Shown here in pieces: positions 2,262-25,274 of a stretch of 64,000 bases of DNA. Each line of letters starts with the position of its first letter. The stretch's first letter is position 1. The notes beneath the pieces were generated by a model that was not told the origin of the DNA, did no database searches, and saw only the letters and a list, made by a program, of their open reading frames with translations. The translations under genes were made by a program, and so were the position numbers. Source of the DNA: Escherichia phage ALITA; sequence record PP359570. One strand, written 5' to 3'.

Positions 2262-3748
2262 TGGCAGATTATGGTTTAACAGATGCTGGTTTTGTCATTC
2301 CAACGTTTGATGATATTCTAAATAATTATATGACAGCATTGAAAAACACTTTCGGTGCAGATACAGCTACATCTGAAGATACAGTCTTTGGTCAACTGTT
2401 TCGTATTATTGCATATACAGATTACACCCTTTGGGAAGGTATGCAAGGTGTTTACAATACCCAAACCTTAGATGGTGCAGAAGGTATTTACCTTGATGAA
2501 ATCTTCTCTAAAAGAGGTTTTTATCGTAAAGCTGCTTCTGCTGGTAGTGGTTATGCTTATGTTAAATCTAACAATAAGGCAGCTTGGACTTATGAACTAA
2601 GCACAGATGTTTATTTTAATGCCGATAACGATTTGACATATTATGTCAGTGCACCAACAATGTTGAATGCTAAGATTGGAGCATATACCATTTCTAAAGC
2701 AAACGCAACAGCTTCTGGTGAAACTTCTATTACTTTCTACATTCAAAGTGCTATTGATGGTGGTCTTAACAGTAAAACACTAAGTCCTAGCAATACAAAC
2801 TTTATTGTAGATCTCACGAATTTCATTAAAGCTAACGTATCAACAACAGATCGTGCTTTAGTATGGAATGATGCTGGTAATGTTTATATGGGTTATAATC
2901 CAGAAGATAATGTTAACCCAATAGGTCTAGTAACACCCGTGAAATTTTATGCATCTATTGCCATTGGTACAAAATGGAGTGAAATTCCAGTTACGTGTTC
3001 AGACGTTGGTTATAATCCAGTAGGTACAGAAAGTATTACAGGTATTTCTTCAACGTTTACAGGCTTTTTAGATACAGGTAACTTCTATCCGTTCTCTCCA
3101 GGTACAGATGTTGAAACAGATGCAGAATTCCGTTCTCGTTTCAATGATAATATGGATGAAGCTAATGCTGCTACTCGTGCTGCTATTGTTAAAGCTCTAT
3201 TACTGACAGATGGTGTGACAAAGGTTAAGATTTACGATAACCCTACACTACACGATCAGGAACATGCTCCAGCTATGACATTCCAGACTATTGTGTATGG
3301 TGGTACAGCAGAAGAAGTTGCACAGGTTATTTATAATACTAAGCCTATTAACACATTAACTTATGGTACGACAGCAATTACTATCGTAACAGAAGATGGT
3401 GGTCAAGAAGTAATTCGTTTTTCTCCTGGTGATAATGCGGAATACTCACTTAAACTGGTATATCAAACTGGTAATGGTAGTGTGTTAAGTACAACAGAAA
3501 GAGAAAATATTGTTTCTGCTCTTGCAAACTTACAGGCTTATTTTGAATTAGGGTCAACAGTAACTAACGATCAGATAAAAGGTGTAATTTATTCTGCACT
3601 TGCGTTCGGACGCTTGACTTCTCTCCGTGTTTATGTTAAACTTAATACTGAGGATGACAGTAAATATAATGAGGGAGATATCACTCCAGCGTACAATGTT
3701 GTACCATCCTTTGACCTTGATAATATTTCCTACGAGTACGGAGTCTAA
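2261..3748 (+). CDS. Baseplate (J-like) structural protein
   Basis: 495-aa ORF with strong SD (AAGGAGG); position upstream of small baseplate-like protein and fibre genes as in P2/Mu-type baseplate modules. Confidence 0.5.
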   Translation: MADYGLTDAGFVIPTFDDILNNYMTALKNTFGADTATSEDTVFGQLFRIIAYTDYTLWEGMQGVYNTQTLDGAEGIYLDEIFSKRGFYRKAASAGSGYAYVKSNNKAAWTYELSTDVYFNADNDLTYYVSAPTMLNAKIGAYTISKANATASGETSITFYIQSAIDGGLNSKTLSPSNTNFIVDLTNFIKANVSTTDRALVWNDAGNVYMGYNPEDNVNPIGLVTPVKFYASIAIGTKWSEIPVTCSDVGYNPVGTESITGISSTFTGFLDTGNFYPFSPGTDVETDAEFRSRFNDNMDEANAATRAAIVKALLLTDGVTKVKIYDNPTLHDQEHAPAMTFQTIVYGGTAEEVAQVIYNTKPINTLTYGTTAITIVTEDGGQEVIRFSPGDNAEYSLKLVYQTGNGSVLSTTERENIVSALANLQAYFELGSTVTNDQIKGVIYSALAFGRLTSLRVYVKLNTEDDSKYNEGDITPAYNVVPSFDLDNISYEYGV

Positions 3749-3750
3749 AA

Positions 3751-4380
3751 ATGGCAGTGAGTGTTGACCATGTGACAACGTGGGATAGTATCAATGAAGA
3801 TGTTAAAGACCTACTGATTGAAGATTTTAAATCTTCTCCGAACATTGTCAAACTACTCTATATCATTTCTAGCGAAAAACAAAAGATAGATCAGGCAATG
3901 ATCTATCTTGCCAAACACCGCTTAATCTCTACTGCAACTGGTAAGTATTTAGATCTTATTGGTGAAGAGATGGGGATGGAAAGAAATGGTGCTACAGATG
4001 AAGAGTATCGTACAATATTAAAAATCAGGGCTTATCGTGTTGCGTCTTCTGGTACGCGAGATGATATCATTGATATGTTCGCTCGTTTTACAGGAACAGA
4101 AAAAGAAACGATTAATACATACGTTGGATTAAATAAAACATTCGACGTATTCTTTTATAATTTGTGTCTACAATCCGATCAGGCAGTAGCACAGTTACTT
4201 AACGTTTTCCCGATCCTAAGTAGTTATCGCTTAGGTGCGAAAGCGGGTGCAGCCTTTGGTTTCACTTCCTATTATGCCACAACTCCACCTCATGGTATAG
4301 GTGGTTTAGGTTCTCTTTACACAGAGGCTGAAGGAGATGATACAGGGCGAATGACTATGCTGATAGCTCAAATAGAATAA
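3751..4380 (+). CDS. Baseplate/tail-fibre-associated protein
   Basis: 209-aa ORF tightly coupled to upstream gene. Confidence 0.45.
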   Translation: MAVSVDHVTTWDSINEDVKDLLIEDFKSSPNIVKLLYIISSEKQKIDQAMIYLAKHRLISTATGKYLDLIGEEMGMERNGATDEEYRTILKIRAYRVASSGTRDDIIDMFARFTGTEKETINTYVGLNKTFDVFFYNLCLQSDQAVAQLLNVFPILSSYRLGAKAGAAFGFTSYYATTPPHGIGGLGSLYTEAEGDDTGRMTMLIAQIE

Positions 4381-5947: not shown

Positions 5948-6289
5948 ATGGAGCTAACAGAAGTATGGGATATCGCTAAAGAGGCGATTATCCCTCTTAT
6001 TGGCGTAATCTGGGTGGTCTTCAAACAGAAGATAGATGATATGGCAAGTGATTTGGATAAAATGGAAGACAAATACCGCGAACTAGAAAAGAAGTTGGTG
6101 TTTGTTGAATCCACTTATGCTACCAAAGCAGAACTTGCTCAAATGCTTAACCAGATCAACTCTACATTAATGGCAAATAATACTGCCTTAGAACAGAAGA
6201 TTGAAAAAATAATGGATTTAAAAAATGCTCCTGTTCAATTAATGCTAGAGGAGATTACAAAGCGCACACAAAGTAAGGACAAAAATTAA
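5948..6289 (+). CDS. Small membrane-anchored coiled-coil protein
   Basis: 113 aa; N-terminal hydrophobic helix then charged coiled-coil; stop overlaps next ATG. Confidence 0.45.
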   Translation: MELTEVWDIAKEAIIPLIGVIWVVFKQKIDDMASDLDKMEDKYRELEKKLVFVESTYATKAELAQMLNQINSTLMANNTALEQKIEKIMDLKNAPVQLMLEEITKRTQSKDKN

Positions 6290-8703
6290 TGGCGAATTTT
6301 CCAACATATCCTGCTACGACACTAGAACAAGGTGTTGATCTGGTTATATTCTCGTCTAACCAGATGCATGATGTTATTAATGGGGATGCTACAGCAACTG
6401 TAGAAACCGAAACAGGTTTAATACCTACACTGCGTAAAGCACTTGTTGATAACTTCTTCTTTAAGAGTCCTGTTGCTTGGTCAGCAGGATCAACTGAAAC
6501 TGTATTTAACCAGTTACGTTATTTTGAAAACGGTATCTTGAGTGGGTACTATTATGCCCCATCTGCCACTACTGCGAACCCTGTACCTATGCAGGGCACA
6601 CCTGTAGGGGACAGTAACTGGACTCTGTACGCTCTTAAAACTGAACAGTTAGCTTCAGATGTGTATCCTTGGTATTTTAAAGGTGCTACAGGATATGAAA
6701 CAGAAATCAGTCCTCCTTATATCTTTGATAATGCTATTGTCACCATTAACGGTGTAATTCAGATTCAAGGTGAAGCATTTACTATCAAAGATAGTAAAAT
6801 TATTCTGGCAGAACCATTAGGTTTAGATCCGTCTACTGGTCTACCTAACAAATTGTTTGCTTTTATTGGTAAAACAACAGCCTCTACTTCTTACGTAGAG
6901 AAAAACCTTTTGTCATCTACCACTGGTGCAGCAATGGTTGGTCTTCCATCTGGAGGCAACCTGTTACAAGCTCAATACTTTGTAACGCCTGAGCAGTTTG
7001 GTGCAATTGGTGATGGAGTTACCGATGATACTCAAGCAATTTTAAAAACTATTACTTTCGCTAACACGAATAACATTCAAGTACGTGCAGATAAGAATTA
7101 TAGATTCACAAGCTCAATTGCTATGTCTGGTATTCGTTGGTATGGTGGTACATTCACTGGTAACGGTGGAACAATGATTTCTACTGTGTCCTGTTGGATG
7201 GAAAACGTTCGCTTTGAAAAATGTTATGTTAAGATGTTAGGTGGTGATTGCCGATTCTATCGTAATATCTTCTCCAACGCAACATCTACAGCAGCATTCT
7301 TAATGCAAGCAATGACAAGTGAAGGTACGTTGGACTTCAGTTACAACGAAATGTATGGTTGTAAATATGCGATCCTGCAACAAGGTACTGGAGAAGTAAT
7401 GACCTACGGGCGTTACTCTAACAACTATATTCACGATATCAAAGGTGATGCTATTGAACTTAACGTAGTTCAAAAACACTACACTGAAGGTTTGATTATC
7501 GAGAATAACCACATTGCTAACGTAGATGCTTCTGGACAAGGTGCAAACTGGGGTATTGGTATTGGTGTAGCAGGTAGTGGCCCATATGGTGTTGATGTTC
7601 CTGATTCACAATATGTACGTAATTTCAGTATCGTTGGGAATAGGGTTTACAATTGCCGTCAATGTCTACACGTTGAAATGGGTAAAAACTTCACAATACG
7701 TGATAATGAAGTTTATCCTAACACAGCAGTTTCAACAGGTACAGGTTTAACTACTTGTGGTGTTGCATTATACGGATGCCAAGATTTTGAAGTTGATGGT
7801 TTAACTGGTTATCTGCTCAATGATCCGTCTGTTTCAACACGTATGGTCTTTATTGACTGGGGTGTTAACAGTGGAAGATATGCGGGGCCACCAATTAACT
7901 TTACAATTAAGAATTTGGATATTCCAGAATCTTCAATTGAGATTGCAACCTCTGGATCAGATGCTTGGGAAAACTCTACAATTGTTAGTAATATCAATTG
8001 TAATGTTTTTAAATGGCGTGGGCTACCATCTAGCTCTACTTTTAATAATATTCGTTGCCGTAGTATTGACTTTATTGGTCAACACGGAAGCGGAGAAGGA
8101 AGTGGTGGCGGTTTCTATACTCGCAGCCAATTCACGTATATGAAGTGGGTAGGATGTACAGCACTTAGCGGAGATGAAACAACAGTTTCTTTTGCTAAAA
8201 TCTACACTGATCGTTGCGATCAGGTTGGAAATAACTTTGGTGTTCCAACTGCTGTTGATGGTACAGGTCATCGTGGGCCAGTTTTAACTACTATTTCTGA
8301 ACAATATTTTACAGCTTATGATGAATTCCCAGGTGGGCGTGAATTCCCTACTGGAACAGTTATTCATTGTGCAAGCGGTAAAAAACATGTTGTTACAGTA
8401 GGTGGTGCTTTCTTTAGTGCCAACGAGAAAATAAAAGCAACTGTTACAGGTCAAACCTATCTACAGTCTAATGCTTTAAACTGGGCTAGTAATGGCTACG
8501 CTAAAGCAGCAGGTACTAAGATTGTTATTCCAGGTGCAGGTGCAAATGGCGGCGATCTTGTGACAACTATAGCACGTGCTACATATGTGACAAATAGTTT
8601 GTACACAATAGATATTGCAGATCCAATTGTAACACCTACAGCAGAGAATACACAAATTAAAGCTCTGAATCCTGTTACTTTTGTTACTGTCAACAATGCT
8701 TAA
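6289..8703 (+). CDS. Tailspike with pectate-lyase-like right-handed beta-helix (putative polysaccharide depolymerase)
   Basis: 804 aa; motif FGAIGDGVTDDTQAIL characteristic of pectate lyase superfamily tailspikes; followed by hairpin terminator. Confidence 0.8.
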   Translation: MANFPTYPATTLEQGVDLVIFSSNQMHDVINGDATATVETETGLIPTLRKALVDNFFFKSPVAWSAGSTETVFNQLRYFENGILSGYYYAPSATTANPVPMQGTPVGDSNWTLYALKTEQLASDVYPWYFKGATGYETEISPPYIFDNAIVTINGVIQIQGEAFTIKDSKIILAEPLGLDPSTGLPNKLFAFIGKTTASTSYVEKNLLSSTTGAAMVGLPSGGNLLQAQYFVTPEQFGAIGDGVTDDTQAILKTITFANTNNIQVRADKNYRFTSSIAMSGIRWYGGTFTGNGGTMISTVSCWMENVRFEKCYVKMLGGDCRFYRNIFSNATSTAAFLMQAMTSEGTLDFSYNEMYGCKYAILQQGTGEVMTYGRYSNNYIHDIKGDAIELNVVQKHYTEGLIIENNHIANVDASGQGANWGIGIGVAGSGPYGVDVPDSQYVRNFSIVGNRVYNCRQCLHVEMGKNFTIRDNEVYPNTAVSTGTGLTTCGVALYGCQDFEVDGLTGYLLNDPSVSTRMVFIDWGVNSGRYAGPPINFTIKNLDIPESSIEIATSGSDAWENSTIVSNINCNVFKWRGLPSSSTFNNIRCRSIDFIGQHGSGEGSGGGFYTRSQFTYMKWVGCTALSGDETTVSFAKIYTDRCDQVGNNFGVPTAVDGTGHRGPVLTTISEQYFTAYDEFPGGREFPTGTVIHCASGKKHVVTVGGAFFSANEKIKATVTGQTYLQSNALNWASNGYAKAAGTKIVIPGAGANGGDLVTTIARATYVTNSLYTIDIADPIVTPTAENTQIKALNPVTFVTVNNA

Positions 8704-14780: not shown

Positions 14781-15728
14781 TTAGAAACAGTGCAGGAAGT
14801 TTCGACCATACTGCAAACCAATAGGAGCAAATGGGATATCATCATCGAAATCTTGAACAACAGGTTCTGGTTCTTTCGGTGCTGGCTCTTTCTTCTCTAC
14901 TTTTTTAGTTTCTTTCTTAACTTCTTGTACCGGGGTAGACATTCCACGGATAGCAGCAGCTACTTTATCAGACAAAGCAAGAACTTCACGAGCAGCTTCA
15001 ATAATCTCTTCTGCCGTTACAGTTTTACCTGTATGATCACGACAAGCGTTAAGAATTGCGTGTCCAACTGAAGCACCAAGATCATAGTCAGTTACATCAA
15101 CGCCACGATCTTTAGCAATTTCTGCTTTCAGAGTAACAGTTGCAGATTGTACCACACCAGCCAAGTCGAAAGCATCACCTTTCACACCAGCACGTAGAAG
15201 CTCCAGAGCGCCGTTTACAGCGTGTCCTGTTTCAATCCCTACGGTATCACGTTTTTTGTAGTTAGGCTTGCTACCTTCGTTATTAGATGGCTTATTTCCA
15301 CCTTTTGAAGAAGATTGTGCTTGCTGAACACCTTCTGTTGAAAGAATAGTGATTTTACCTTTAGAGGAATTGTAGTATGTTTTGCCATTCCATTCAGAAG
15401 GTTTAACATCCATAGTTAGTTCTACACCTTTTTCGATAGTAACCCACTTATCACCATCTTTAACTTGCAGGTTTTCATGTTCTGGGTGCAGTTTAACTTC
15501 ACCTAGGCTAACCCAAACACCTTTATCATCAGCACCAGCACCTTTCTCTTTAATAAGCAGGGATGCTTTGTGAGTTGATTCAATTTTCTTATCTGGCTGA
15601 CCTGCAACCTTAATATAAGAAACTTTCATTTCATCAAACTTATCTAGTTTGACATATTCAACGATACCTTCAGCCCAGAATGCTTCTTTTTTAGTACGAC
15701 GGTCGATTTCAGAATTAATTACTGGCAT
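14781..15728 (-). CDS. Single-stranded DNA-binding protein-like
   Basis: 315 aa; acidic DFDDDIPF motif (as at bacterial SSB C-terminal tip) 15 residues from the end; G/S/N-rich linker; position beside replisome genes. Confidence 0.55.
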   Translation of the reverse strand: MPVINSEIDRRTKKEAFWAEGIVEYVKLDKFDEMKVSYIKVAGQPDKKIESTHKASLLIKEKGAGADDKGVWVSLGEVKLHPEHENLQVKDGDKWVTIEKGVELTMDVKPSEWNGKTYYNSSKGKITILSTEGVQQAQSSSKGGNKPSNNEGSKPNYKKRDTVGIETGHAVNGALELLRAGVKGDAFDLAGVVQSATVTLKAEIAKDRGVDVTDYDLGASVGHAILNACRDHTGKTVTAEEIIEAAREVLALSDKVAAAIRGMSTPVQEVKKETKKVEKKEPAPKEPEPVVQDFDDDIPFAPIGLQYGRNFLHCF

Positions 15729-15744
15729 AAATTCTCCTCTATAA

Positions 15745-16143
15745 TTACATTACTTTAACACAAAACTCTCGTAAAAGAGTAGCGTCAGTTTCTTCCAACA
15801 GGTATTTACCAAGACCAATACCAAATCCTATTTCACCACTTTCGAAATGGAGGATTTGTATCTTTTCTCCACCAAGGTTAATTACTTTTGCTTTTCCAGG
15901 ATTATCCAAAACATCTCGTATTGTATCCTGTAGTAGCATTAGTTCACGTTTTGTGATAGTGGTTTCAGATATCTCTTTGTTTTCTACTCTCACTGTTAAA
16001 CGGTTGTATCCACCAAAGAGACATAGTATTTGAATAAAAAAGGTATTATCTTGAGGTTCAACATCTTTTTTAGTTAGTTCAAGACGATTAGTTTCTCTAC
16101 TATAGAACGTCTCGACTAAGATTTTAGAACGATTATCTGTCAT
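15745..16143 (-). CDS. Hypothetical protein
   Basis: 132-aa ORF in replication block. Confidence 0.45.
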   Translation of the reverse strand: MTDNRSKILVETFYSRETNRLELTKKDVEPQDNTFFIQILCLFGGYNRLTVRVENKEISETTITKRELMLLQDTIRDVLDNPGKAKVINLGGEKIQILHFESGEIGFGIGLGKYLLEETDATLLREFCVKVM

Positions 16144-16186
16144 TCAAGTCCTCATAATAACACATAATTATAATGTTTGTCAACAC

Positions 16187-16780
16187 TTAAATTTTAAATT
16201 CTTCACTGTTAAATGAATCCAGTGTACGTACTTCTGGTTCTTTGGGAATGAAAACATCTTTTACAAAGCGGAACATAGGGAAACGTTCTGCCATTTTACG
16301 GACGTGTGCTTCTTTACCTGTGTATCGGTGATTAATAGTACAAATATTAGTTTTCAGTGCAAATTCAAAATCTGGATGATATACATAATTTTGACCGTCC
16401 CAGTAACACAGGCAAATAGCTACATCAAAGTTCCATACGATTTCACTGCGTACACCTTCTTCCATGATCATAAAGTTAAACTTAAGATCTTTATAGTATG
16501 CTTCAAATACCCATTTCAAATGTGGTAGTTCGGCATAAGTGTGTTCTGTTTGCTTAGTAAGTTGTTTAACATTACGTGCACCAACACCCAACATCAAAAA
16601 TTTCTCTACTAATACGAGTGTATTGTGGTTAGGCATACGCAAGTAAATGTCAATATCTTGCGCAGGTTTCTCTAATCGCCAGTCACGTACAGCGCCGCCA
16701 GCTACAATTGCAAACGGATCTACCAGTTGGCACATACGTAATACTTCTAAAGCTCGTACTTTTTGATCTTCAATATTCAT
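16187..16780 (-). CDS. Nucleotidyltransferase (pol-beta-like head domain; CCA-adding/poly(A)-polymerase family-like)
   Basis: 197 aa; motif FAIVAGGAVRDWRLEKPAQDIDIY resembling GGAVRD...DxD of tRNA nucleotidyltransferases. Confidence 0.55.
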   Translation of the reverse strand: MNIEDQKVRALEVLRMCQLVDPFAIVAGGAVRDWRLEKPAQDIDIYLRMPNHNTLVLVEKFLMLGVGARNVKQLTKQTEHTYAELPHLKWVFEAYYKDLKFNFMIMEEGVRSEIVWNFDVAICLCYWDGQNYVYHPDFEFALKTNICTINHRYTGKEAHVRKMAERFPMFRFVKDVFIPKEPEVRTLDSFNSEEFKI

Positions 16781-16815
16781 ATTTTCTCCTATCTCTTATG
16801 GTCTTTGCGTTATTC

Positions 16816-16833
16816 TAGATGTTCAAACATCTA
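16816..16833. promoter_or_regulatory. Perfect 8-bp-arm palindrome (candidate operator) upstream of nucleotidyltransferase gene
   Basis: TAGATGTT-CA-AACATCTA. Confidence 0.3.
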
Positions 16834-16919
16834 ATTATGAAATAGTTTAAAAGTGCGGAACAACCTTGGCAATCACAGATTGTTCCACATAAAAACTCCT
16901 TATAAAACAATATGTTAGA

Positions 16920-19499
16920 CTAATGACAAGACGCCCATGAGTTACCAACATCGTAACCAGCAGTGAGAGGTACATTAAGATTGTAATACTCACCAGCTTT
17001 ATTAACAGCGATAGATGCTAATTCTCCAGCACGACTGTAGGCTGTAAACCAACCACCTTTCGGAGATTCATGTACGTTAGCCCAAATCTTGCCAGTACGT
17101 TTCTCTTCCTCTTCTTTCCAGGCATTAACCTTATCCAAACATTCTTTATCAATTTTCTTTTGTTCTTCTGGATCATCAACTTGAGTCCAACCTAAAGATT
17201 CTTTAGAGAACCATTTAAAATGCACCAGATCACGAGTTACTTCAAGCTGTGCTTCATCGTGATATGCAATCATTTGTTGAACGAATGACTTATTTTTCCA
17301 GTCATCAACAAAAAAGTCAACAGCTAATCCTTCTTCTTCGATAAGATCGTCGTAGATAACCATTGCTCTTTTTGCACAAATAACACCACCACTCTGGAAC
17401 AGAGAGTTAAGTATTGCGTGTGCAGATCGTGTAGGTACTTTCCTACCATCAATACCAAGAATGTATTTCTTACCTGTTTTAACCCAAAAATCATGCAGAC
17501 GTTCTTTAAGAAGCGCAAGAGGTTTTGCAGCTTCCCAGAAAGCATCGTATACAAGCTGTCCTGTATACATATCACTACCTATAGTTTTTGCTACTTTTGC
17601 AGCTTGAGCACCATAAGTAATACCATACTTAACAGATTTAGCAGGGCTTCGTTCAAACTTACGACCAATAGTGTCAGAAATACGTCGAGCCATCATTGTA
17701 TGAACATCATTAGGTTTTTCCAATAATAGAGCATTACAATATTCGTGTGGTTCCTGCTCGTACCGCCAACAGTAGTGTGATTCTATTTTTGCCTCAAGAG
17801 AATCAAAGTCATAACCAATTTGGAAGTATTTTGGAACTTCTACACCAAATAAGTTACGCATTTCATATCCGTACAGAGATGTTACACGTGGGATATTTGC
17901 TACTAACCTATGTTTCATACGAGACGTAGCTGCATCACACGTTGCAGCAGGAGTTGGTATACGACCATCAGCCCTTACTGCTGCCAGATAACCTTTATCG
18001 TAATCCTCTTCATCTTCTTCCCAATCAGCACCACCCCCTAGAATAGAGTTCCTACGGTGTTTATACGTAAGATACTGCACAATCTGCGTAGCATAAGGAA
18101 ACTTTTCACCTAGTGCTTCCAAGTTAGGACAAATATCTTTCTCTTGCCCTTTTGTAAAGGAAGGGTTAGTAAGCACTTTAACACCACGACCTTTAGCTTT
18201 AGCAATACGATCTCTTAGTTTCCATTCCAAAGTTTCTGGTGTGCACTCCAGATGATCACATCTGTCCTGGCAGAAGTTAGATGCTAACGTTTGATCAACA
18301 TAGTCACGAATAGCTTTCTCCATCTGTGCTTCATCTTTCTTAATCTTAGTGCCAGATTTAAGAGTGATATCTTTATCTTTATATTCAGATGGACTCCAAC
18401 CTAAACCAACTAACCAATTTTTAATATGTGTAGTGTCGTCTAAAGTAGCAGGTACTGTAGGATCACAAATAGGTTCTTCTGCTGGAATAGGCAGTTTAAA
18501 CTCTTTACCTAATGCAAATAACCACCAACCATCTTCTTTTTGTACAAGTTCACCAGAATGTTTCTCTGCAAACTTTATCATGTTACTTGAAGGTTCACCA
18601 TTCTTTTTAAACTGTAGTTTAGGTGGAATGAATGATTTCAAATAACCTTTAGTAGCAGGTTTAGGAGGTAGCACAGGTTCTGCCTCTAAACGACATGCTT
18701 CCATTCGAGCATCCAGATCACGAATATTATCTTCTGCTTGCTTCATATTGAAAGCAAAGCCACGGTGCTCTTGACGTGTAATAATATCAGCTACACGTTG
18801 TTCTAAGTTAAATGGTTCAGACCACTTATTATAATCACCCCACTCTTCCATCAAATAACGGAACACTGCGGTGTTAGCTTTGTTATCGTAAATACAGTAA
18901 TACAGCATATCTGCTGCAAATGTTTTAAATCTTTCAGTTTCAGGGATGTTTTTTCTAAAATCAATTTTAACATCCCCTCCAGCTTTCTTAGATAACTCTG
19001 CCAGACTATGACCACCGAAGCGATCAGGGTTTAGTGTCTTACTTAAGATCATAGTATCACAAATTTCAATGTTACTATTACCCCAAGTATTGTACTTAAT
19101 ACTGTAGTTGAGTTTAAAAAATAATTTAATTGCCAGTAAGTCAAAGTTAATGATGTTATGTCCAACTACTTTGGTAATTTTATAGTTTGAATTACCTTTA
19201 AATTTACCTGTTCCATTTACAAAATCAGGAAAATCTTTAAGAGGGAAATGGGTATATTCTAAATGCTCATATTCCTCCAGTCGGTATTCATACTTTCCGT
19301 CAGTCTCAATATACGGACGACCATCGAAAAGATATTTATCACCATCATGGAAAGCAATAATCTCTCCAGTATCATGACTTTCGCACACAATACAGTGCAT
19401 TGCAAAACTATCTTTTAAACGATATGGACTTGCCAAGTAATCTACACTTTCGTCATTAAGCAAGTTGTTACTTTCAATGTCGAAAGTAAAAGCTCCCAT
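16920..19499 (-). CDS. DNA polymerase, family A (T7 gp5-like)
   Basis: 859 aa; motif A GYDFDSLEAKI, motif B RSPAKSVKYGITYG, motif C YHDEAQ; C-terminus ...NSWASCH like T7 ...NWAICH; SD AAGGAGG. Confidence 0.95.
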   Translation of the reverse strand: MGAFTFDIESNNLLNDESVDYLASPYRLKDSFAMHCIVCESHDTGEIIAFHDGDKYLFDGRPYIETDGKYEYRLEEYEHLEYTHFPLKDFPDFVNGTGKFKGNSNYKITKVVGHNIINFDLLAIKLFFKLNYSIKYNTWGNSNIEICDTMILSKTLNPDRFGGHSLAELSKKAGGDVKIDFRKNIPETERFKTFAADMLYYCIYDNKANTAVFRYLMEEWGDYNKWSEPFNLEQRVADIITRQEHRGFAFNMKQAEDNIRDLDARMEACRLEAEPVLPPKPATKGYLKSFIPPKLQFKKNGEPSSNMIKFAEKHSGELVQKEDGWWLFALGKEFKLPIPAEEPICDPTVPATLDDTTHIKNWLVGLGWSPSEYKDKDITLKSGTKIKKDEAQMEKAIRDYVDQTLASNFCQDRCDHLECTPETLEWKLRDRIAKAKGRGVKVLTNPSFTKGQEKDICPNLEALGEKFPYATQIVQYLTYKHRRNSILGGGADWEEDEEDYDKGYLAAVRADGRIPTPAATCDAATSRMKHRLVANIPRVTSLYGYEMRNLFGVEVPKYFQIGYDFDSLEAKIESHYCWRYEQEPHEYCNALLLEKPNDVHTMMARRISDTIGRKFERSPAKSVKYGITYGAQAAKVAKTIGSDMYTGQLVYDAFWEAAKPLALLKERLHDFWVKTGKKYILGIDGRKVPTRSAHAILNSLFQSGGVICAKRAMVIYDDLIEEEGLAVDFFVDDWKNKSFVQQMIAYHDEAQLEVTRDLVHFKWFSKESLGWTQVDDPEEQKKIDKECLDKVNAWKEEEEKRTGKIWANVHESPKGGWFTAYSRAGELASIAVNKAGEYYNLNVPLTAGYDVGNSWASCH

Positions 19500-19995: not shown

Positions 19996-21768
19996 TTAAT
20001 AAGAACCAGCAGAAATATTTTCTGGGTTACTTGTGTATTGATCGTAATCGTGAAGTGTAGCTGTTTTAATCTCATAGAAGAAACTACCTGCTGCACCAGT
20101 CTCTGAGAACTCACGGTTCTTTAGAATGTAGCAATATGTGCGGTTACGTTCCATAGGATCTTCAGCTTGTTTATCACGCTCCAGCGCAATTGTGATACCA
20201 GCACCTTTAGCAAGGAAGCTACTACCCATTGCATCATCTTCTACAATATGTTCATTACTATTGTTAGAAGACTTTTTAACGTGTGAAATTACAACAATGG
20301 TTATTGCATACTCTTTCATAATGCGTTTCAGCCACGTCGCAAGTTCCTCTTGTTGTGACACGTCCATACCAGAAAGCAAATCAGAATAAGGGTCGATAAC
20401 AAGAATGGTTACTCCGAAATAAATAATCATTTCCAGAACCTTCTCTTTAATCACATCTACGTTAGCTCCACGATCATCACAAACATAGAAACGTGGTGTT
20501 CCATCTTCTCGTTCGTAAAAATCACGAATCTTTTCTTCATTATCTTTTAAAATCTTTTCCTTCTCTTCTTTCGTTTTACGGTGAAGAGGGATATGCAAGA
20601 ATGAAGACAGTAAGTTACGAGAATACTTCTTATACGTTGCCTCCAAAGATAAAATACCAAGAGTATGTTCTGGGTGTGCAAGAATAATGTGTTTCGTAAT
20701 CTCGTTAACCAACAGTGTCTTACCGATACTTGTTTTTGCAAGTATAACAGTAATTTCTTCTTCTACCAAGCCTCCACCTAACATATTCGAAGCAACACGC
20801 ATGAATGGAGGAAGGGTGATCATTTTAGCTTCCAGGCATTCCAAGGCTGCTTCATATAGTACGTTAGAAGCGTAAACACCAGCAGGTGTGTACAGTTTAG
20901 CTTTGAAAAAGCGATCAATAAAATGATCAATTTTTCCTTCTACTAGTGCCTGGTTAGGATCTTTAACATCCGTTAGTTCCATCACGTAAACTTTATTACG
21001 TGGTAAGATTTTAACACATTTCTCAACTGCTGCACGTCCAGCTTCATCATTATCCATACATAGAACAATCTTTTTAAATTGATCTAAGAATTTATAACGA
21101 TGTTGAAGCTGCTTATGCAGAGATGTTTCGCCACAAGTACCAGATACTACAGCAGGAACAGGATATTTACCACCCTTGTTATAATCTTTTAGCATCTGTG
21201 TTGCAGCCAGCATATCGTGTTCACCACCAACGATTAGAATAGTACCGCTGTGGTTACGATATTTAAACTCCCCAAAAAGATCACAATCCTTTCCTGTTTC
21301 ACCGATAGGATGTGAGAAATCTTTTGGATCGATACGTTGTTTATACCCAGCAATATTGTAATCTTTAGTTGTAGGGTATAGTGTTGAAATTACTTCGCCA
21401 GTAGCTTCATCGTACATATAACGTACACCGAAAGGCTTAGAGATATCTTCACGAATACCGCGATAACCTTTTGGATTAGTTCCAGTGCTGGCTTTTAGTT
21501 TATCATGTACTTCTGGATTAAACTCACTACCCAAGATATCCTCCTCTTCAATTTCTTCGCCGTGTGCATTTAACCATTTTTGATCAGGGATAGTAAAGCC
21601 ACAAGAAAAACAATGTGCGCCTCGATGGTCTTCATCGGCATCTAAGCCATATACCATCAAATTGTTTTGTGATCGATCACGCCCTCCTTTCATACAACGA
21701 GGACACCCAGTATGTCCTTCTTGACTTAGATCAATGTTATACCCATATTTATTTACAACATAAGACAC
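19996..21768 (-). CDS. Primase-helicase (T7 gp4-like)
   Basis: 590 aa; N-terminal zinc ribbon CPRC...CFSCGF, then DnaB-like helicase with Walker A LAKTSIGKT. Confidence 0.9.
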   Translation of the reverse strand: MSYVVNKYGYNIDLSQEGHTGCPRCMKGGRDRSQNNLMVYGLDADEDHRGAHCFSCGFTIPDQKWLNAHGEEIEEEDILGSEFNPEVHDKLKASTGTNPKGYRGIREDISKPFGVRYMYDEATGEVISTLYPTTKDYNIAGYKQRIDPKDFSHPIGETGKDCDLFGEFKYRNHSGTILIVGGEHDMLAATQMLKDYNKGGKYPVPAVVSGTCGETSLHKQLQHRYKFLDQFKKIVLCMDNDEAGRAAVEKCVKILPRNKVYVMELTDVKDPNQALVEGKIDHFIDRFFKAKLYTPAGVYASNVLYEAALECLEAKMITLPPFMRVASNMLGGGLVEEEITVILAKTSIGKTLLVNEITKHIILAHPEHTLGILSLEATYKKYSRNLLSSFLHIPLHRKTKEEKEKILKDNEEKIRDFYEREDGTPRFYVCDDRGANVDVIKEKVLEMIIYFGVTILVIDPYSDLLSGMDVSQQEELATWLKRIMKEYAITIVVISHVKKSSNNSNEHIVEDDAMGSSFLAKGAGITIALERDKQAEDPMERNRTYCYILKNREFSETGAAGSFFYEIKTATLHDYDQYTSNPENISAGSY

Positions 21769-21780
21769 AGGATTCTCCTA

Positions 21781-22050
21781 CTAAAATGATTCGTTTGTCT
21801 CCATAATATATTGCATTTCCAAATCTTCCATATGTTTCTTAAATTGGTAAACAATTTCCGATGGGGAAATATCTATATCAAAAAGTTCTTTTGTACCAGA
21901 ATAAAACCTAATACCATCAACAATAAGACCACCATAATAATCCCAATCACTTTCTCGTGAGAAAGGGTTAGGTTCTTCATAATAGTAATCTACTTCAACA
22001 ATAATAGGTTCTTTATTATCTTGTTTATACTCAAAATCAAAAGTGTGCAT
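21781..22050 (-). CDS. Hypothetical protein
   Basis: 89 aa, SD GAGGA. Confidence 0.45.
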   Translation of the reverse strand: MHTFDFEYKQDNKEPIIVEVDYYYEEPNPFSRESDWDYYGGLIVDGIRFYSGTKELFDIDISPSEIVYQFKKHMEDLEMQYIMETNESF

Positions 22051-22985
22051 TATAAATCCTCGATAAGCAGTCTGCGGGTTTCATTTAAATTGTAGTTATC
22101 TCTTACATACTTAGCAAGAGCCAATCCTTTCTCAATACAAACATCAGGGGATTCGATTAAGTATTCTACAATATCTTTCCACTCTTTAACTGAATCAGCA
22201 AAGAAGATTAGATCTTTAAATTCTTCAGTATAATAGTTCTCTCGTGGCGAACAAACGAGTGGCAAACCTTTAGCACCAGCTTCAAGAATTTTTAAATTAC
22301 TTTTGGCATTATTAAAATGATTATTTACTAATGGAGCTATGGAGATTTGATGACCATCGTATGCTTCCATATAACACTCATAAGGACGAATACCTTCATA
22401 AACACAATCTGGTTGAATATTTTCTTTAATTTGCAACCATTGAGCACTACTTAACTCTTCGTGATCTCTACGAAATCCACATAAAGTTAAATCTTTACCA
22501 AAATCAGGAAGAATTGCTAAATCATGTTTATGTGTTTCACTTCCCGCCCAAACCAGTGGACTTTTAGAATAACGATCTTTAGTAAGAACAAACTGTCCTT
22601 CATCAAAAGGTAGTCCGTTAGGCACAATATGTACATTATCATTGTATTGGCTTAATTCAACCTTTAATGCCGGAGTTGTTGTAGTTACAAGATCACTTCT
22701 TTCAAGGAACCATTTTAGGTCATCTCGGATTTGATTTTCAAATAATCCTTCAAGCATATGCCCTTCAGGAATAATTAAAGAATCATCCAGATCCATTACC
22801 AATTTAAACCCAAGTTGTTTAAGAGCCAGGAAACCTGGCTTTCCACGTGTTGGTACTCCATTGAACACAAAAATATTATGCTTAGGATTAATTGTCAGTT
22901 TGCGTTTATATGGCAAAATGATTCTATGAAAATCACATACACTATACTTTTCATTTCCGCGTGTGTCAAGAATAATATTAGGCAT
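22050..22985 (-). CDS. Glycosyltransferase (GT-B fold, group-1-like)
   Basis: 311 aa; C-terminal motif ISIAPLVNNHFNNAKSNLKILEAGAKGLPLVCSP; paralog of next gene. Confidence 0.65.
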   Translation of the reverse strand: MPNIILDTRGNEKYSVCDFHRIILPYKRKLTINPKHNIFVFNGVPTRGKPGFLALKQLGFKLVMDLDDSLIIPEGHMLEGLFENQIRDDLKWFLERSDLVTTTTPALKVELSQYNDNVHIVPNGLPFDEGQFVLTKDRYSKSPLVWAGSETHKHDLAILPDFGKDLTLCGFRRDHEELSSAQWLQIKENIQPDCVYEGIRPYECYMEAYDGHQISIAPLVNNHFNNAKSNLKILEAGAKGLPLVCSPRENYYTEEFKDLIFFADSVKEWKDIVEYLIESPDVCIEKGLALAKYVRDNYNLNETRRLLIEDL

Positions 22986-22996
22986 ATATCTCCTTG

Positions 22997-23971
22997 TTAA
23001 AGACTTTCAATAACTTGACGACGCAGTTCATTGGCATCTGCAAGATTATAATTAAGACGAACGTGTTCTGCAAGCATCATACCACGATCTTCTGTGTATC
23101 TAGGGTTCCTCATTAGCTTGACAACTTCATAATGCCAAGATGCTTTAGAGTCTGCATAGATAACAGCCTTTGCATCTACCGGATTGAAGTACGGCAGCAC
23201 AGGAGAACAGATAATAGGAAGACCCTTTGCACCTGCTTCCAAAATCTTCAAATTGCTTTTACAGTTGTTGAAGTCATTATCTACCAGGGGAGCAATTGCA
23301 ATACTGTGACCGTCATACACAGACATATACTCACCTAAATTTTTAATAGCTGGTTTATACTGTGCATTTGGAATCTTACGTTTTATTTTAACCCACTCCG
23401 CAGTAGTTAGATACTGACTATTATTTCCAACAGGTGCAGAAGGATACACTTCATACCCTGCAATTGTCAATAGTGTATCATCAAATGTATTAGCTACAAG
23501 AGATAAATCAGGTTCGTGGCTTGCTCCTCCAGCCCAGATAATAGGCGTGTCAGAATTACGGTCTTTTGTCAAAGTAAATTGACCTTCGTCGTAAGGTAGT
23601 GCGTTTCTAATAACGACAACATTACGATTTAAATGACGAATTTTGTAAGCTAGGTATTCTGTTGTTACAGTAACAACATCTGCTAACTTGACCATCTCTA
23701 CAATAGTCTTTGAGTGATTAGTAAATACGCCAGCCATATAATGTTCAGGATTAAGTGAATAAAAATCATCTAAATCAACAATAATCTTAACACCTTGTGC
23801 CTTCAGGCGTTTAACCTCGTCTGCTCCACGAGAATACACTCTATTAAAAACTAAAACGTCTTTCTTAGGTTTAAACGTATTTCCAGCAAATGGCATTACA
23901 ATACGATGGTAATCACAACCACTGCCTAACTTATTATCACACTTAAGTACAGGAGTATTAGGATTTACCAT
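22997..23971 (-). CDS. Glycosyltransferase (GT-B fold), paralog
   Basis: Start set at ATG with SD AGGAGG (MVNPNTPVL...); motif IAIAPLVDNDFNNCKSNLKILEAGAKGLPIICSP. Confidence 0.65.
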   Translation of the reverse strand: MVNPNTPVLKCDNKLGSGCDYHRIVMPFAGNTFKPKKDVLVFNRVYSRGADEVKRLKAQGVKIIVDLDDFYSLNPEHYMAGVFTNHSKTIVEMVKLADVVTVTTEYLAYKIRHLNRNVVVIRNALPYDEGQFTLTKDRNSDTPIIWAGGASHEPDLSLVANTFDDTLLTIAGYEVYPSAPVGNNSQYLTTAEWVKIKRKIPNAQYKPAIKNLGEYMSVYDGHSIAIAPLVDNDFNNCKSNLKILEAGAKGLPIICSPVLPYFNPVDAKAVIYADSKASWHYEVVKLMRNPRYTEDRGMMLAEHVRLNYNLADANELRRQVIESL

Positions 23972-24644
23972 ATTTTTGAGCCTCCTCATAAGAGATAAAA
24001 GTTTTACCATTGCGAAGATCCTCCAGTGATTGTTTATATTGTTCCCAGTTTACACCAATCCCCTGTTCTTTCTCTTCTTTTGACAGATTCGCAAAAGGTA
24101 AAGGATTATCTCCAAATACATCATCAGGATGGATAAACGCCATAATTCGAATAGGACATGGCACGCCTTGAATACCTCGGTTCAAACCTGCCAGTGGAAC
24201 GCGATGAATCCACTCTGCATCTTCATATCCATAACCGTGGGTGTATGAGCGGAAATAGCCAGCTTTCTCAATAACTGCACGGGAATACATACCAAACTGG
24301 CACATACCTAGTTCCCAAATAACCACTTCCCCTTCAATACCTTTTACTTTATCTTTAAAGTATTCAGGCATACCAAAGAAATCCCAACCATTTTCCTTCG
24401 CCTGTTTTACAAAATATGTTTCCCAACCTTGAACAACAGGATAGCAATCATCATCAAAAATAAACCAGTAATCATACCCTTCATCATAAAACTTTTTCAT
24501 CAGTTCATTACGAGCATATGCAACACCTTTTCGTTCCCGATCATACTGTACAACAAAAGTAGCATTAGGATCAGTCACAAGATAATCTTTAAGAGGACGC
24601 TTACCTACAGTAATAACACCAACACCAATTTTTGTATTTTCCAA
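23958..24644 (-). CDS. Glycosyltransferase (GT-A fold, DxD)
   Basis: 228 aa; YWFIFDDDCYP DxD-type motif. Confidence 0.6.
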   Translation of the reverse strand: MENTKIGVGVITVGKRPLKDYLVTDPNATFVVQYDRERKGVAYARNELMKKFYDEGYDYWFIFDDDCYPVVQGWETYFVKQAKENGWDFFGMPEYFKDKVKGIEGEVVIWELGMCQFGMYSRAVIEKAGYFRSYTHGYGYEDAEWIHRVPLAGLNRGIQGVPCPIRIMAFIHPDDVFGDNPLPFANLSKEEKEQGIGVNWEQYKQSLEDLRNGKTFISYEEAQKYGKS

Positions 24645-24653
24645 AATAACTCC

Positions 24654-25217
24654 TTAAATAATTTTATTCATGTCTTGACAATGTAAAAGGTGTGAAATAG
24701 CTTTTCTAGGATCATCATTACCTAAACGGTATGTGTGAAATAAATATAACCCACGTAGTAAACCTAGCCTTTTATTGTTAGCGTGCAATGCTTTAGAGAA
24801 AATTATATCAAACTGTATTGATCTTTCCTCAAAAGGGATTTCATTCCACAGACTCTTACGAAAGAGAAGAAAGAATCCTGCTAAGATAGCATCTGTAGGT
24901 ACTTCCTCTATTGAGTTTCCCCATTCTAGATGTGCTCTTTTTGCAATCTCAATGTGGTGTAATATATTCGGATCTTCACTTCTTTCATTATTAAATAATT
25001 GATATGTTGATCCCAATCTATTACAAGATGCACCAAGAACATCAAAATCAGGATTTGAACGGACTATTGATTCCAGCCAAGCAGGTTGTTCTGGAAGAAG
25101 AAACATTGTATCAATGTCTCTTAGGCAAATCCAACTATCTTCTGGTAAGACACTTATTGTGTCATTGATACCTTTTCCAATATCTCCAGAAAGATAGGGA
25201 GTTATGTGAAATATCAT
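24654..25217 (-). CDS. Putative glycosyltransferase-like protein
   Basis: 187 aa; CLRDIDTMF acidic motif; adjacent to three GT genes. Confidence 0.4.
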   Translation of the reverse strand: MIFHITPYLSGDIGKGINDTISVLPEDSWICLRDIDTMFLLPEQPAWLESIVRSNPDFDVLGASCNRLGSTYQLFNNERSEDPNILHHIEIAKRAHLEWGNSIEEVPTDAILAGFFLLFRKSLWNEIPFEERSIQFDIIFSKALHANNKRLGLLRGLYLFHTYRLGNDDPRKAISHLLHCQDMNKII

Positions 25218-25274
25218 ACTCCCTCCGTATTATTACTTTAGCATTTTTAGACTAAAAAGTCCAAATGGTTTTAC

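Follow-up and report, generated by a model that had tools for sequence, protein, structure and literature searches.

Few enzymes are known to inhibit a DNA-targeting defence system, and Gabija anti-defence 2 (Gad2) is among them. This protein of 400 amino acids (aa), encoded by Bacillus phage SPbetaL7, has a predicted nucleotidyltransferase (NTase) domain (bioRxiv 10.1101/2023.05.01.538930; Yirmiya et al., Nature 2024). SPbetaL7 becomes sensitive to Gabija when its gad2 is knocked out. A homologue from a Brevibacillus laterosporus prophage abolishes Gabija defence when supplied in trans, and the version from SPbetaL7 has proved toxic to cells (bioRxiv 10.1101/2023.05.01.538930). The mechanism of Gad2 was listed as unknown in a review of February 2026 (PMC12904381). 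We analysed a stretch of 64,000 nucleotides from Escherichia phage ALITA (sequence record PP359570), hereafter called the window. It comes from a phi92-like Justusliebigvirus (Stephanstirmvirinae) and shares 98% DNA identity with phi92-like coliphages. One of its open reading frames (ORFs) encodes a 197-aa protein that is 98-100% identical to phi92 gp158, named "nucleotidyltransferase" in RefSeq, and to the orthologues of gp158. The gene is already annotated as an NTase, and it falls in a known family, Gad2. We propose, with what we judge to be an even chance of being right, that this ORF is the stand-alone catalytic core of a Gad2-family phage NTase, a diverged class II head with a partial neck, and that it works in counter-defence in association with replication. 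The gene and its ribosome-binding site lie at the following positions of the window.

16187..16780, minus strand: coding sequence for the predicted 197-aa stand-alone NTase core of the Gad2 family (PF26128), from the ORF and its translation; orthologue of phi92 gp158
16786..16790, minus strand: ribosome-binding site AGGAG, 5 nt 5' of the ATG start codon, read from the sequence; the same site is annotated in phi92

The link to Gad2 was already present in precomputed Pfam annotations, where PF26128 "Gad2" (E <= 1e-5) is assigned to the exact window protein, to its 90% cluster representative and to most of its relatives. For our own comparisons we used a set of ten Gad2 sequences: the verified one from Brevibacillus and nine other homologues listed by the discoverers in their supplementary table. 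The window protein matched the verified Gad2 in BLASTP with an E-value of 1e-5 and 24% identity over 117 residues. The profile of its family aligned by hhalign with this single sequence (Prob 86%, E 5e-6) and with the profile of the ten Gad2 homologues (Prob 97.5%, E 7.5e-12), placing residues 19-151 of the window protein on residues 22-141 of Gad2. A hidden Markov model (HMM) of the ten homologues, run against the six-frame ORFs of the window, retrieved this ORF alone (E 1.4e-6, the next best being 0.033). The same family profile aligned with that of Escherichia coli Cca, the CCA-adding enzyme, at a Prob of 7% and through motif A alone, the Cca profile being built from 120 sequences of low diversity (at least 71% identity) and only 23 columns being confidently aligned, too few to place the third metal ligand of the active site. 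The profile comparisons and the HMM result, set against this weak match to Cca, therefore identify the protein as a member of the Gad2 NTase-domain family, and we regard this assignment, made from sequence, as very probable.

The two groups share several signatures besides being phage-encoded. These are AGG...DxD-[IVF]-[YF], a k-[VIL]-Q-[LIM]-[IM] strand with Gln at the place expected for the third acidic ligand, and F-[DP]-x-[ST]-[IV]-C...[HT]-x-D-F. The discoverers' list of Gad2 homologues includes forms of 214-228 aa, one of which carries GGSLRD. A 400-aa relative of the window protein (P0060) was considered as an SPbeta-type Gad2 and rejected, as its NTase domain is C-terminal and its search found no Bacillus phage.

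The short NTases form a large family. The window protein matches PHROG 1614 ("nucleotidyltransferase") at E 2.6e-34, and a HMMER search covering 1.84 billion representative proteins found 997 clusters (50% identity) at E <= 1e-3, 280 of them at E <= 1e-10. Almost every member is a stand-alone protein, 175-230 aa long, whose match spans positions 1-175. In the relatives of 290-400 aa, the N-terminal extensions had no Pfam match. The family is almost exclusively phage-borne. Its members sit on viral or metagenomic contigs, and 185,579 species genomes contained only nine family loci, all of them on contigs of metagenome-assembled genomes. Two members vary this theme. An 82-kb phage contig (L009) encodes two Gad2-family paralogues (3236-3874 and 6001-6594), 2 kb apart and just 5' of primase and polymerase genes. 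The homologue in Vibrio phage ICP1, ORF223 (L056, IMGVR_UViG_650627111_000001; 137 aa), aligns with no more than residues 3-126 of the window protein and is annotated as two ORFs in several ICP1 genomes, hence the ICP1-lineage gene may be truncated or split.

We modelled the protein with AlphaFold2 from an alignment of 107 sequences. The model is confident (predicted local distance difference test, pLDDT, 87.5; predicted template modelling score, pTM, 0.82), with residues 180-197 alone disordered, and it shows the class II head/neck fold. The best structural matches were all class II NTases, in alignments that covered only the N-terminal head and neck of these enzymes, and they made up the top 43 PDB matches in Foldseek, at template modelling (TM) scores (query) of about 0.5. 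Other NTases of the pol-beta superfamily (TENT5, MenT, KNT, CD-NTase, RelA-like) scored at most 8 in the structural comparison. NTases of defence systems (MenT/AbiEii toxins, CD-NTases and others) were neither a profile match nor the closest fold. By sequence, the searches against solved structures joined the family to class II enzymes through motif A only (E 0.03-0.5 with the profile), and with the single sequence they gave E 0.32 or worse and an unrelated protein as top match; no deposited structure of this family was found among the solved structures searched. The class II tRNA NTases and poly(A) polymerase (PDB 3AQL, 4WBY, 1MIV, 3H37, 1OU5) and the window protein share motif A (GGxVRD...DxD) and an identical order of secondary-structure elements from the head into the neck. 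They differ in that the window protein is devoid of motif B, motif D, body, tail and RNA-binding domain.

Motif A of the window protein reads A27-G-G-A-V-R-D33, followed by W34 and by D42-I-D44 within QDIDIY. Motif counts were made in 259 family members and 120 E. coli-type Cca sequences. The family keeps G28/G29 in 258 members, R32 in 255, W34 in 258, D42/D44 in all 259, Y82 in 255 and K162 in 249; GGxxRD as a string occurs in 237 and DxD in every one. The near-invariance of G28/G29 and of D42/D44 indicates conserved catalytic-type residues rather than a chance match. The third position is different. At residue 102, on strand beta5, the window protein has Asn, and the family has Gln in 230 members, Asn in 23, Asp in five and Glu in one. 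Gad2 homologues likewise have Gln at the equivalent position, with Glu or Asp in some (Glu in one). We infer that N102 takes the place where class II enzymes carry the Glu or Asp that is their third metal ligand, an equivalence that rests on the strand order in the model and on the Gad2 homologues with an acidic residue there. On the neighbouring strand, only about 65% of members have an acidic residue at the position of E93. Judging from the conserved residues and the modelled fold, the protein is probably a catalytically active NTase.

The features that define a CCA-adding enzyme are another matter. Motif B (RRD) occurs in one of the 259 members and in all 120 Cca sequences; the window protein has V115-W116-N117 before F118. 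Motif D ([ED]DxxR) turns up in 17 members, its position varying, but in every one of the 120 Cca sequences; the window protein contains no EDxxR. This motif is the nucleotide template with which class II enzymes select CTP and ATP, and its D and R were irreplaceable in a selection for CCA repair (PMC11784652). At 197 aa the protein is far shorter than E. coli Cca (412 aa). It had no Pfam match to PolyA_pol_RNAbd (PF12627) or to any other C-terminal domain, while PF12627 is present in nearly all Cca relatives listed, the exceptions being short or partial sequences. The Pfam PolyA_pol model (PF01743) scored 19.1 bits on residues 26-81 only (E 0.0017), below its gathering threshold of 23, and matched at E <= 0.01 in only 15 of 107 relatives. 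The NCBIfam CCA models gave weak matches only. Hence the label 'tRNA nucleotidyltransferase / poly(A) polymerase' carried by relatives is not supported by their sequence features. The sequence-only reading of this DNA had described a 197-aa protein with the GGAVRD...DxD head motif and without the body and tail domains of a full CCA-adding enzyme, and these observations are confirmed: alignments stop at the head and neck. Its interpretation is partly supported. The profile search and structure prediction that it proposed did return a class II-type head fold, but in a family that is Gad2 and not CCA-adding; of the active-site carboxylates on which it rested, the DxD pair is present and the third ligand is unusual, being Gln/Asn by our placement. 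Its first suggestion, a minimal tRNA 3'-end repair enzyme, is not supported. The fallback, an NTase with another substrate, was the better half, as the protein groups with a Gabija anti-defence NTase.

Other small phage NTases are structurally or functionally comparable. BFVD contains 128 viral proteins that match the model at E <= 1e-3, including many short phage proteins such as ICP1 ORF223 and the "tRNA nucleotidyltransferases" of Pectobacterium phages. Among these neighbours are the NTases of Pectobacterium phages DU_PP_II and PP2 and of Dickeya phage Ninurta, at E 1e-7 to 1e-6. The short 'tRNA nucleotidyltransferase' of Pectobacterium/Dickeya Autographiviridae (PP47 gp28; PMC7693777) likewise has a class II-like head, and its gene lies between those of helicase and DNA polymerase. 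However, these proteins are only 16-21% identical to ours, at TM 0.54-0.64, and were not recovered by the family sequence searches. A stand-alone 'CCA-adding enzyme head domain' from Streptococcus pneumoniae (NP_344798.1; PDB 2LA3, 191 aa) is a structural neighbour at 9% identity; it was not matched in sequence searches. The MNT-like phage NTases (Ho et al., bioRxiv 10.1101/2022.06.09.495361) are also small members of the pol-beta superfamily engaged in enzymatic counter-defence, and have been reported from relatives of this phage group, such as phage Av05 (same source). They belong to another clade, however, with GS-x-AY[GAN]T-x4-SDxD, a downstream NP-x-h2-[DE] and an MNT/KNT-like fold, none of which is found in the window protein.

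The gene lies in a replication module, in the order primase-helicase, small ORF, DNA polymerase, NTase, gp157-like, gp156-like and N6/N4 DNA methyltransferase. The main neighbours are the following.

16920..19499, minus strand: DNA polymerase of family A (T7-like), 859 aa, adjoining the NTase gene upstream
19996..21768, minus strand: T7 gp4-like primase-helicase (Toprim + DnaB_C), from domain matches
14781..16143, minus strand: gp157-like (132 aa) and gp156-like (315 aa) genes, downstream of the NTase gene

This setting in the replisome module of lytic Gram-negative phages differs from that of Gad2, whose gene belongs to an anti-defence locus (gad1/gad2) carried by SPbeta-like temperate phages. 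It is typical of the short family. We scanned IMG/VR and obtained 80 loci, 58 with the NTase after dereplication, of which 33 had at least 5 kb on both sides. A cluster of T7 gp4-like primase-helicases was represented in 43 of the 58 loci and a cluster of family A polymerases in 34. Among the well-flanked loci, one of these two genes (primase-helicase or DNA polymerase) lay no further than 10 kb away in 27 of 33 (82%) and no further than 2 kb in 18. The other recurrent neighbours were genes for an exonuclease, a Gp2.5-like single-stranded DNA-binding protein (SSB), HNH endonucleases, ThyX and a cell-wall hydrolase. RNA ligase and polynucleotide kinase (PNK) genes were not among the recurrent neighbours, and a tRNA gene was nearby in only seven of the 58 loci. 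One contig (L024, IMGVR_UViG_3300026320_000001) is exceptional in having 17 tRNA genes within 10 kb of the NTase gene. In L006/L007 (11339-12565; 3443-4669), genes for an RtcB RNA ligase and a GIY-YIG protein lie about 3 kb 3' of the NTase, with an IS605 OrfB/TnpB-like gene directly 5' of it; the RtcB gene was the one RNA-repair neighbour that we saw.

The linkage to the replisome is old, since the median identities to the window are similarly low for the NTase (about 29%), the primase-helicase (29%) and the polymerase (27%). At closer range the pattern changes. Stephanstirmvirinae-like phages conserve the order polymerase - (small ORFs) - NTase - gp157 - gp156, and among these syntenic genomes the NTases are 35-53% identical while the polymerase and primase-helicase are 70-84% identical. 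In two IMG/VR contigs (L025 and L032) the replisome genes share 71-78% identity with their counterparts in the window, but the NTase at the same position shares only 29-34%, which points to an in situ replacement of the NTase allele. Such faster divergence of the NTase than of its replisome neighbours is a pattern typical of host-interaction genes. The synteny with gp157 and gp156 is restricted to Stephanstirmvirinae-like phages, and we therefore rejected either gene as a conserved partner and, with it, a two-component system.

Together, the fold, the invariant residues for binding of NTP-Mg2+ and the homology to Gad2 support an active, template-independent NTase in counter-defence. In the mechanism that we envisage, NTP-Mg2+ would be bound through G28-G29, R32, D42 and D44, with Gln or Asn at position 102 in place of the third metal ligand, and a nucleotide would be transferred without a template to an acceptor hydroxyl. 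This would amount to enzymatic counter-defence during phage DNA replication, by which a Gabija-type system (an OLD-family nuclease with a UvrD-like helicase, sensing DNA ends and nucleotide status) would be kept from triggering or acting. As acceptor, we would rank a nucleic-acid 3' end made during infection above a small nucleotide product, and the latter above a protein. Its location in the replication module would suit an enzyme working at DNA ends or on replication intermediates, which is where Gabija acts according to recent work summarised in PMC12904381. Taken by itself, the counter-defence role seems to us evenly poised between right and wrong, and Gabija as the specific target somewhat less likely than not.

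Several points weigh against this proposal. HMMER scores between the short subfamily and the Gad2 group are low (10-26 bits), and the anti-Gabija role would be transferred from a homologue with about 24% identity. The window protein corresponds to the N-terminal 170 residues or so of Gad2 only; the C-terminal domain of about 230 aa is missing, and this domain may carry the target specificity. In motif A, Gad2 has GG(A/T)ITS, whereas the short subfamily has GGA(P/V)RDW with a near-invariant R-D-W, closer to class II, and the substrates may therefore differ. The Gln or Asn at the third-ligand position might signal a changed chemistry or a lower activity. The protein had no match in PADLOC, and we found in the literature no published data on the Gabija sensitivity of phi92-like or BASEL phages. 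Finally, co-inheritance with the replisome over very deep divergence fits a replication function as well as one related to defence.

The last point leads to the explanation that the protein is a replication accessory, a template-independent NTase that acts on phage DNA or primers and serves the T7-like module in ordinary replication, recombination or processing of ends. It might, for instance, tail or cap the 3' ends of a terminally redundant linear genome, and it would have no role in defence. The gene does lie between or beside those for primase-helicase and polymerase in most loci, with exonuclease, Gp2.5-like SSB and endonuclease genes nearby, and the genes stay linked even where all three proteins have fallen to about 25-30% identity; the loss of RRD, the sensor of the ribose 2'-OH, would make dNTPs or DNA ends possible substrates. 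T7-like replication modules also hold counter-defence genes, namely gp4.5, gp5.5 and gp5.9 in T7, hence position alone does not decide. An evolution much faster than that of the replisome genes in close relatives, together with the apparent in situ replacement, would be unusual for a core replication factor, and the gene is absent from T7 and from most phages with the same type of replisome, only a minority of Autographiviridae carrying such NTases (PMC7693777). The verified homologue is, moreover, a dispensable anti-defence gene (bioRxiv 10.1101/2023.05.01.538930). We thus consider the replication accessory unlikely. By analogy with the MNT-like NTases, the protein might instead be a small-molecule synthase or nucleotide-pool enzyme, which makes a nucleotide-derived product or consumes or links NTPs. 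The product would serve as a decoy for, or inhibit, a defence protein that senses nucleotides, GajA for example, whose nuclease is held off by NTPs. A conserved core of only about 175 aa with no recognisable nucleic-acid-binding domain is consistent with this idea, as is the toxicity of SPbetaL7 Gad2, which would fit an enzyme acting on a general metabolite. Small phage pol-beta NTases are known to neutralise TIR-STING through the synthesis of cyclic GMP-AMP (cGAMP) and cyclic di-AMP (c-di-AMP) (bioRxiv 10.1101/2022.06.09.495361), and Gabija, regulated by nucleotides, is cited as a 'nucleotide-sensing endonuclease'. We nevertheless find this possibility distinctly improbable.

The explanations that involve RNA have lower probabilities. 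A minimal enzyme for tRNA 3'-end (CCA) repair, restoring the CCA ends of host or phage tRNAs damaged by tRNA-targeting defence nucleases, would account for the class II motif A and fold. Phi92-like phages have about 16 tRNA genes (PMC12210895), and one family member lies 3 kb from an RtcB gene. OLD-family relatives of GajA, such as P2 Old, are tRNases (PMC12445682; table in PMC12904381), so a link between tRNA and Gad2 is conceivable, but cuts in the anticodon arm by OLD-type tRNases are beyond mending by addition at the 3' end. The window contains no tRNA genes, few of the related loci have one nearby, and RNA ligase and PNK do not recur among the neighbours. With two defining motifs (including the irreplaceable D and R of EDxxR), the body, tail and tRNA-binding domains, an above-threshold PolyA_pol score and a tRNA-related genomic association all missing, CCA repair is the least supported of the readings and, to our mind, highly improbable. 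A host-shutoff toxin of the MenT/AbiEii type would add nucleotides to the acceptor ends of host tRNAs or to other RNAs and block host translation early. The fold is, however, much closer to class II than to MenT, no antitoxin-like partner is conserved beside the gene, PADLOC recognised nothing and a non-toxic Gad2 homologue still blocks Gabija (bioRxiv 10.1101/2023.05.01.538930); there is very little chance that this explanation is right.

A wider extension of the Gad2-type counter-defence reading, which we offer as speculation with a low probability, is that the short Gad2-like NTases, almost all of about 190 aa, are a distinct and ancient class II branch recruited into T7-type replisome modules. 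Their active site would combine two carboxylates with a glutamine, beside a re-lined pocket for the nucleotide, and their targets would be DNA ends, replication intermediates or possibly tRNA. Nucleotides added there would hide these molecules from defences with an end-sensing OLD-family nuclease and helicase, such as Gabija. If true, hiding ends by nucleotide addition would be a new mode of enzymatic counter-defence and would supply the missing mechanism of Gad2. In any case, phi92-like coliphages, including members of the BASEL collection, carry a minimal 197-aa core of the Gad2 type with a class II fold and without the nucleotide-selecting residues, and across a very large family of phages such a core is encoded within the replisome module. 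This provides a compact and genetically tractable E. coli system in which to ask what Gad2-type enzymes transfer, and onto what.

The neighbouring genes present some features of their own. The gp156-like gene (14781-15728, minus strand, 315 aa) belongs to PHROG 4477, 'unknown function', and is annotated as SSB in phage Eryne. Its product carries DFDDDIPF, the acidic tail motif of bacterial SSB, 15 residues short of the C-terminus, and it is 60-63% identical across Stephanstirmvirinae-like phages, which makes it more conserved than the NTase. The polymerase of phi92 (gp159; L001, 10219-13533) has 1104 aa, with an in-frame insertion of 245 aa (residues 578-821) that is missing from the 859-aa polymerase of the window, while the flanks are 99-100% identical. 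The insertion resembles an intein or homing element that phi92 has and the window lacks. For phages inny and muut, the polymerase carries the annotation 'part I' and is probably split. Four predicted glycosyltransferase genes (phi92 gp163-166) follow each other at about 22048-25224 on the minus strand, directly 5' of the primase-helicase gene and in the same direction; the sources consulted gave no DNA modification for this phage group alongside this run.

We also searched the surroundings of the NTase gene for regulatory elements and found the following.

16816..16833, no strand: perfect 8+8 palindrome, TAGATGTT-CA-AACATCTA, 35 nt 5' of the ATG, in a single copy in the window
16841..16812, minus strand: weak promoter-like site with a -10-like TAGAAT, from a promoter scan; the palindrome overlaps its spacer and -10
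16854..16889, minus strand: terminator-like imperfect 13-bp inverted repeat (85% complementary), then ACTTTTAAA on the minus strand, just 3' of the DNA polymerase stop codon (16920)
16154..16183, minus strand: strong sigma-70-like promoter TTGACA-18-TATTAT with an extended TG (11/12 matches), starting 4 nt after the NTase stop codon and 5' of the gp157-like gene

The palindrome that the sequence-only reading had placed just upstream of the gene is thus present, and by its position it could be an operator or a promoter element. On its own, however, it is not statistically remarkable and does not exceed the level expected by chance. The window contains 38 perfect 8-bp inverted repeats with a loop of at most 6 nt, against 10.4 +/- 4 in shuffles, and this excess consists mostly of G+C-rich terminator-like hairpins. 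The palindrome is identical in phi92, but the region there is about 98% identical overall, and it was not found 5' of the orthologues in FKP3, nepoznato and PsgM04F. We rejected it as a repeated regulatory motif, given its single copy, its unexceptional statistics and its conservation only in near-identical genomes. The hairpin at 16854-16889 was not called by a strict terminator scan; from its sequence, it looks like a terminator between the polymerase and NTase genes. The promoter at 16154-16183 would drive the downstream gp157 and gp156 genes. With a hairpin 5' and promoter-like sites on both sides, the NTase gene is therefore bracketed by its own predicted transcription signals. Elsewhere in the window, G+C-rich perfect 8-bp hairpins have recurring stems, AAGGAGCC occurring twice and GGCGGGAA twice, at positions that include 13571/14739, 60826/61706, 36945, 54271 and 58581. 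These hairpins are probably a family of intrinsic terminators between genes.

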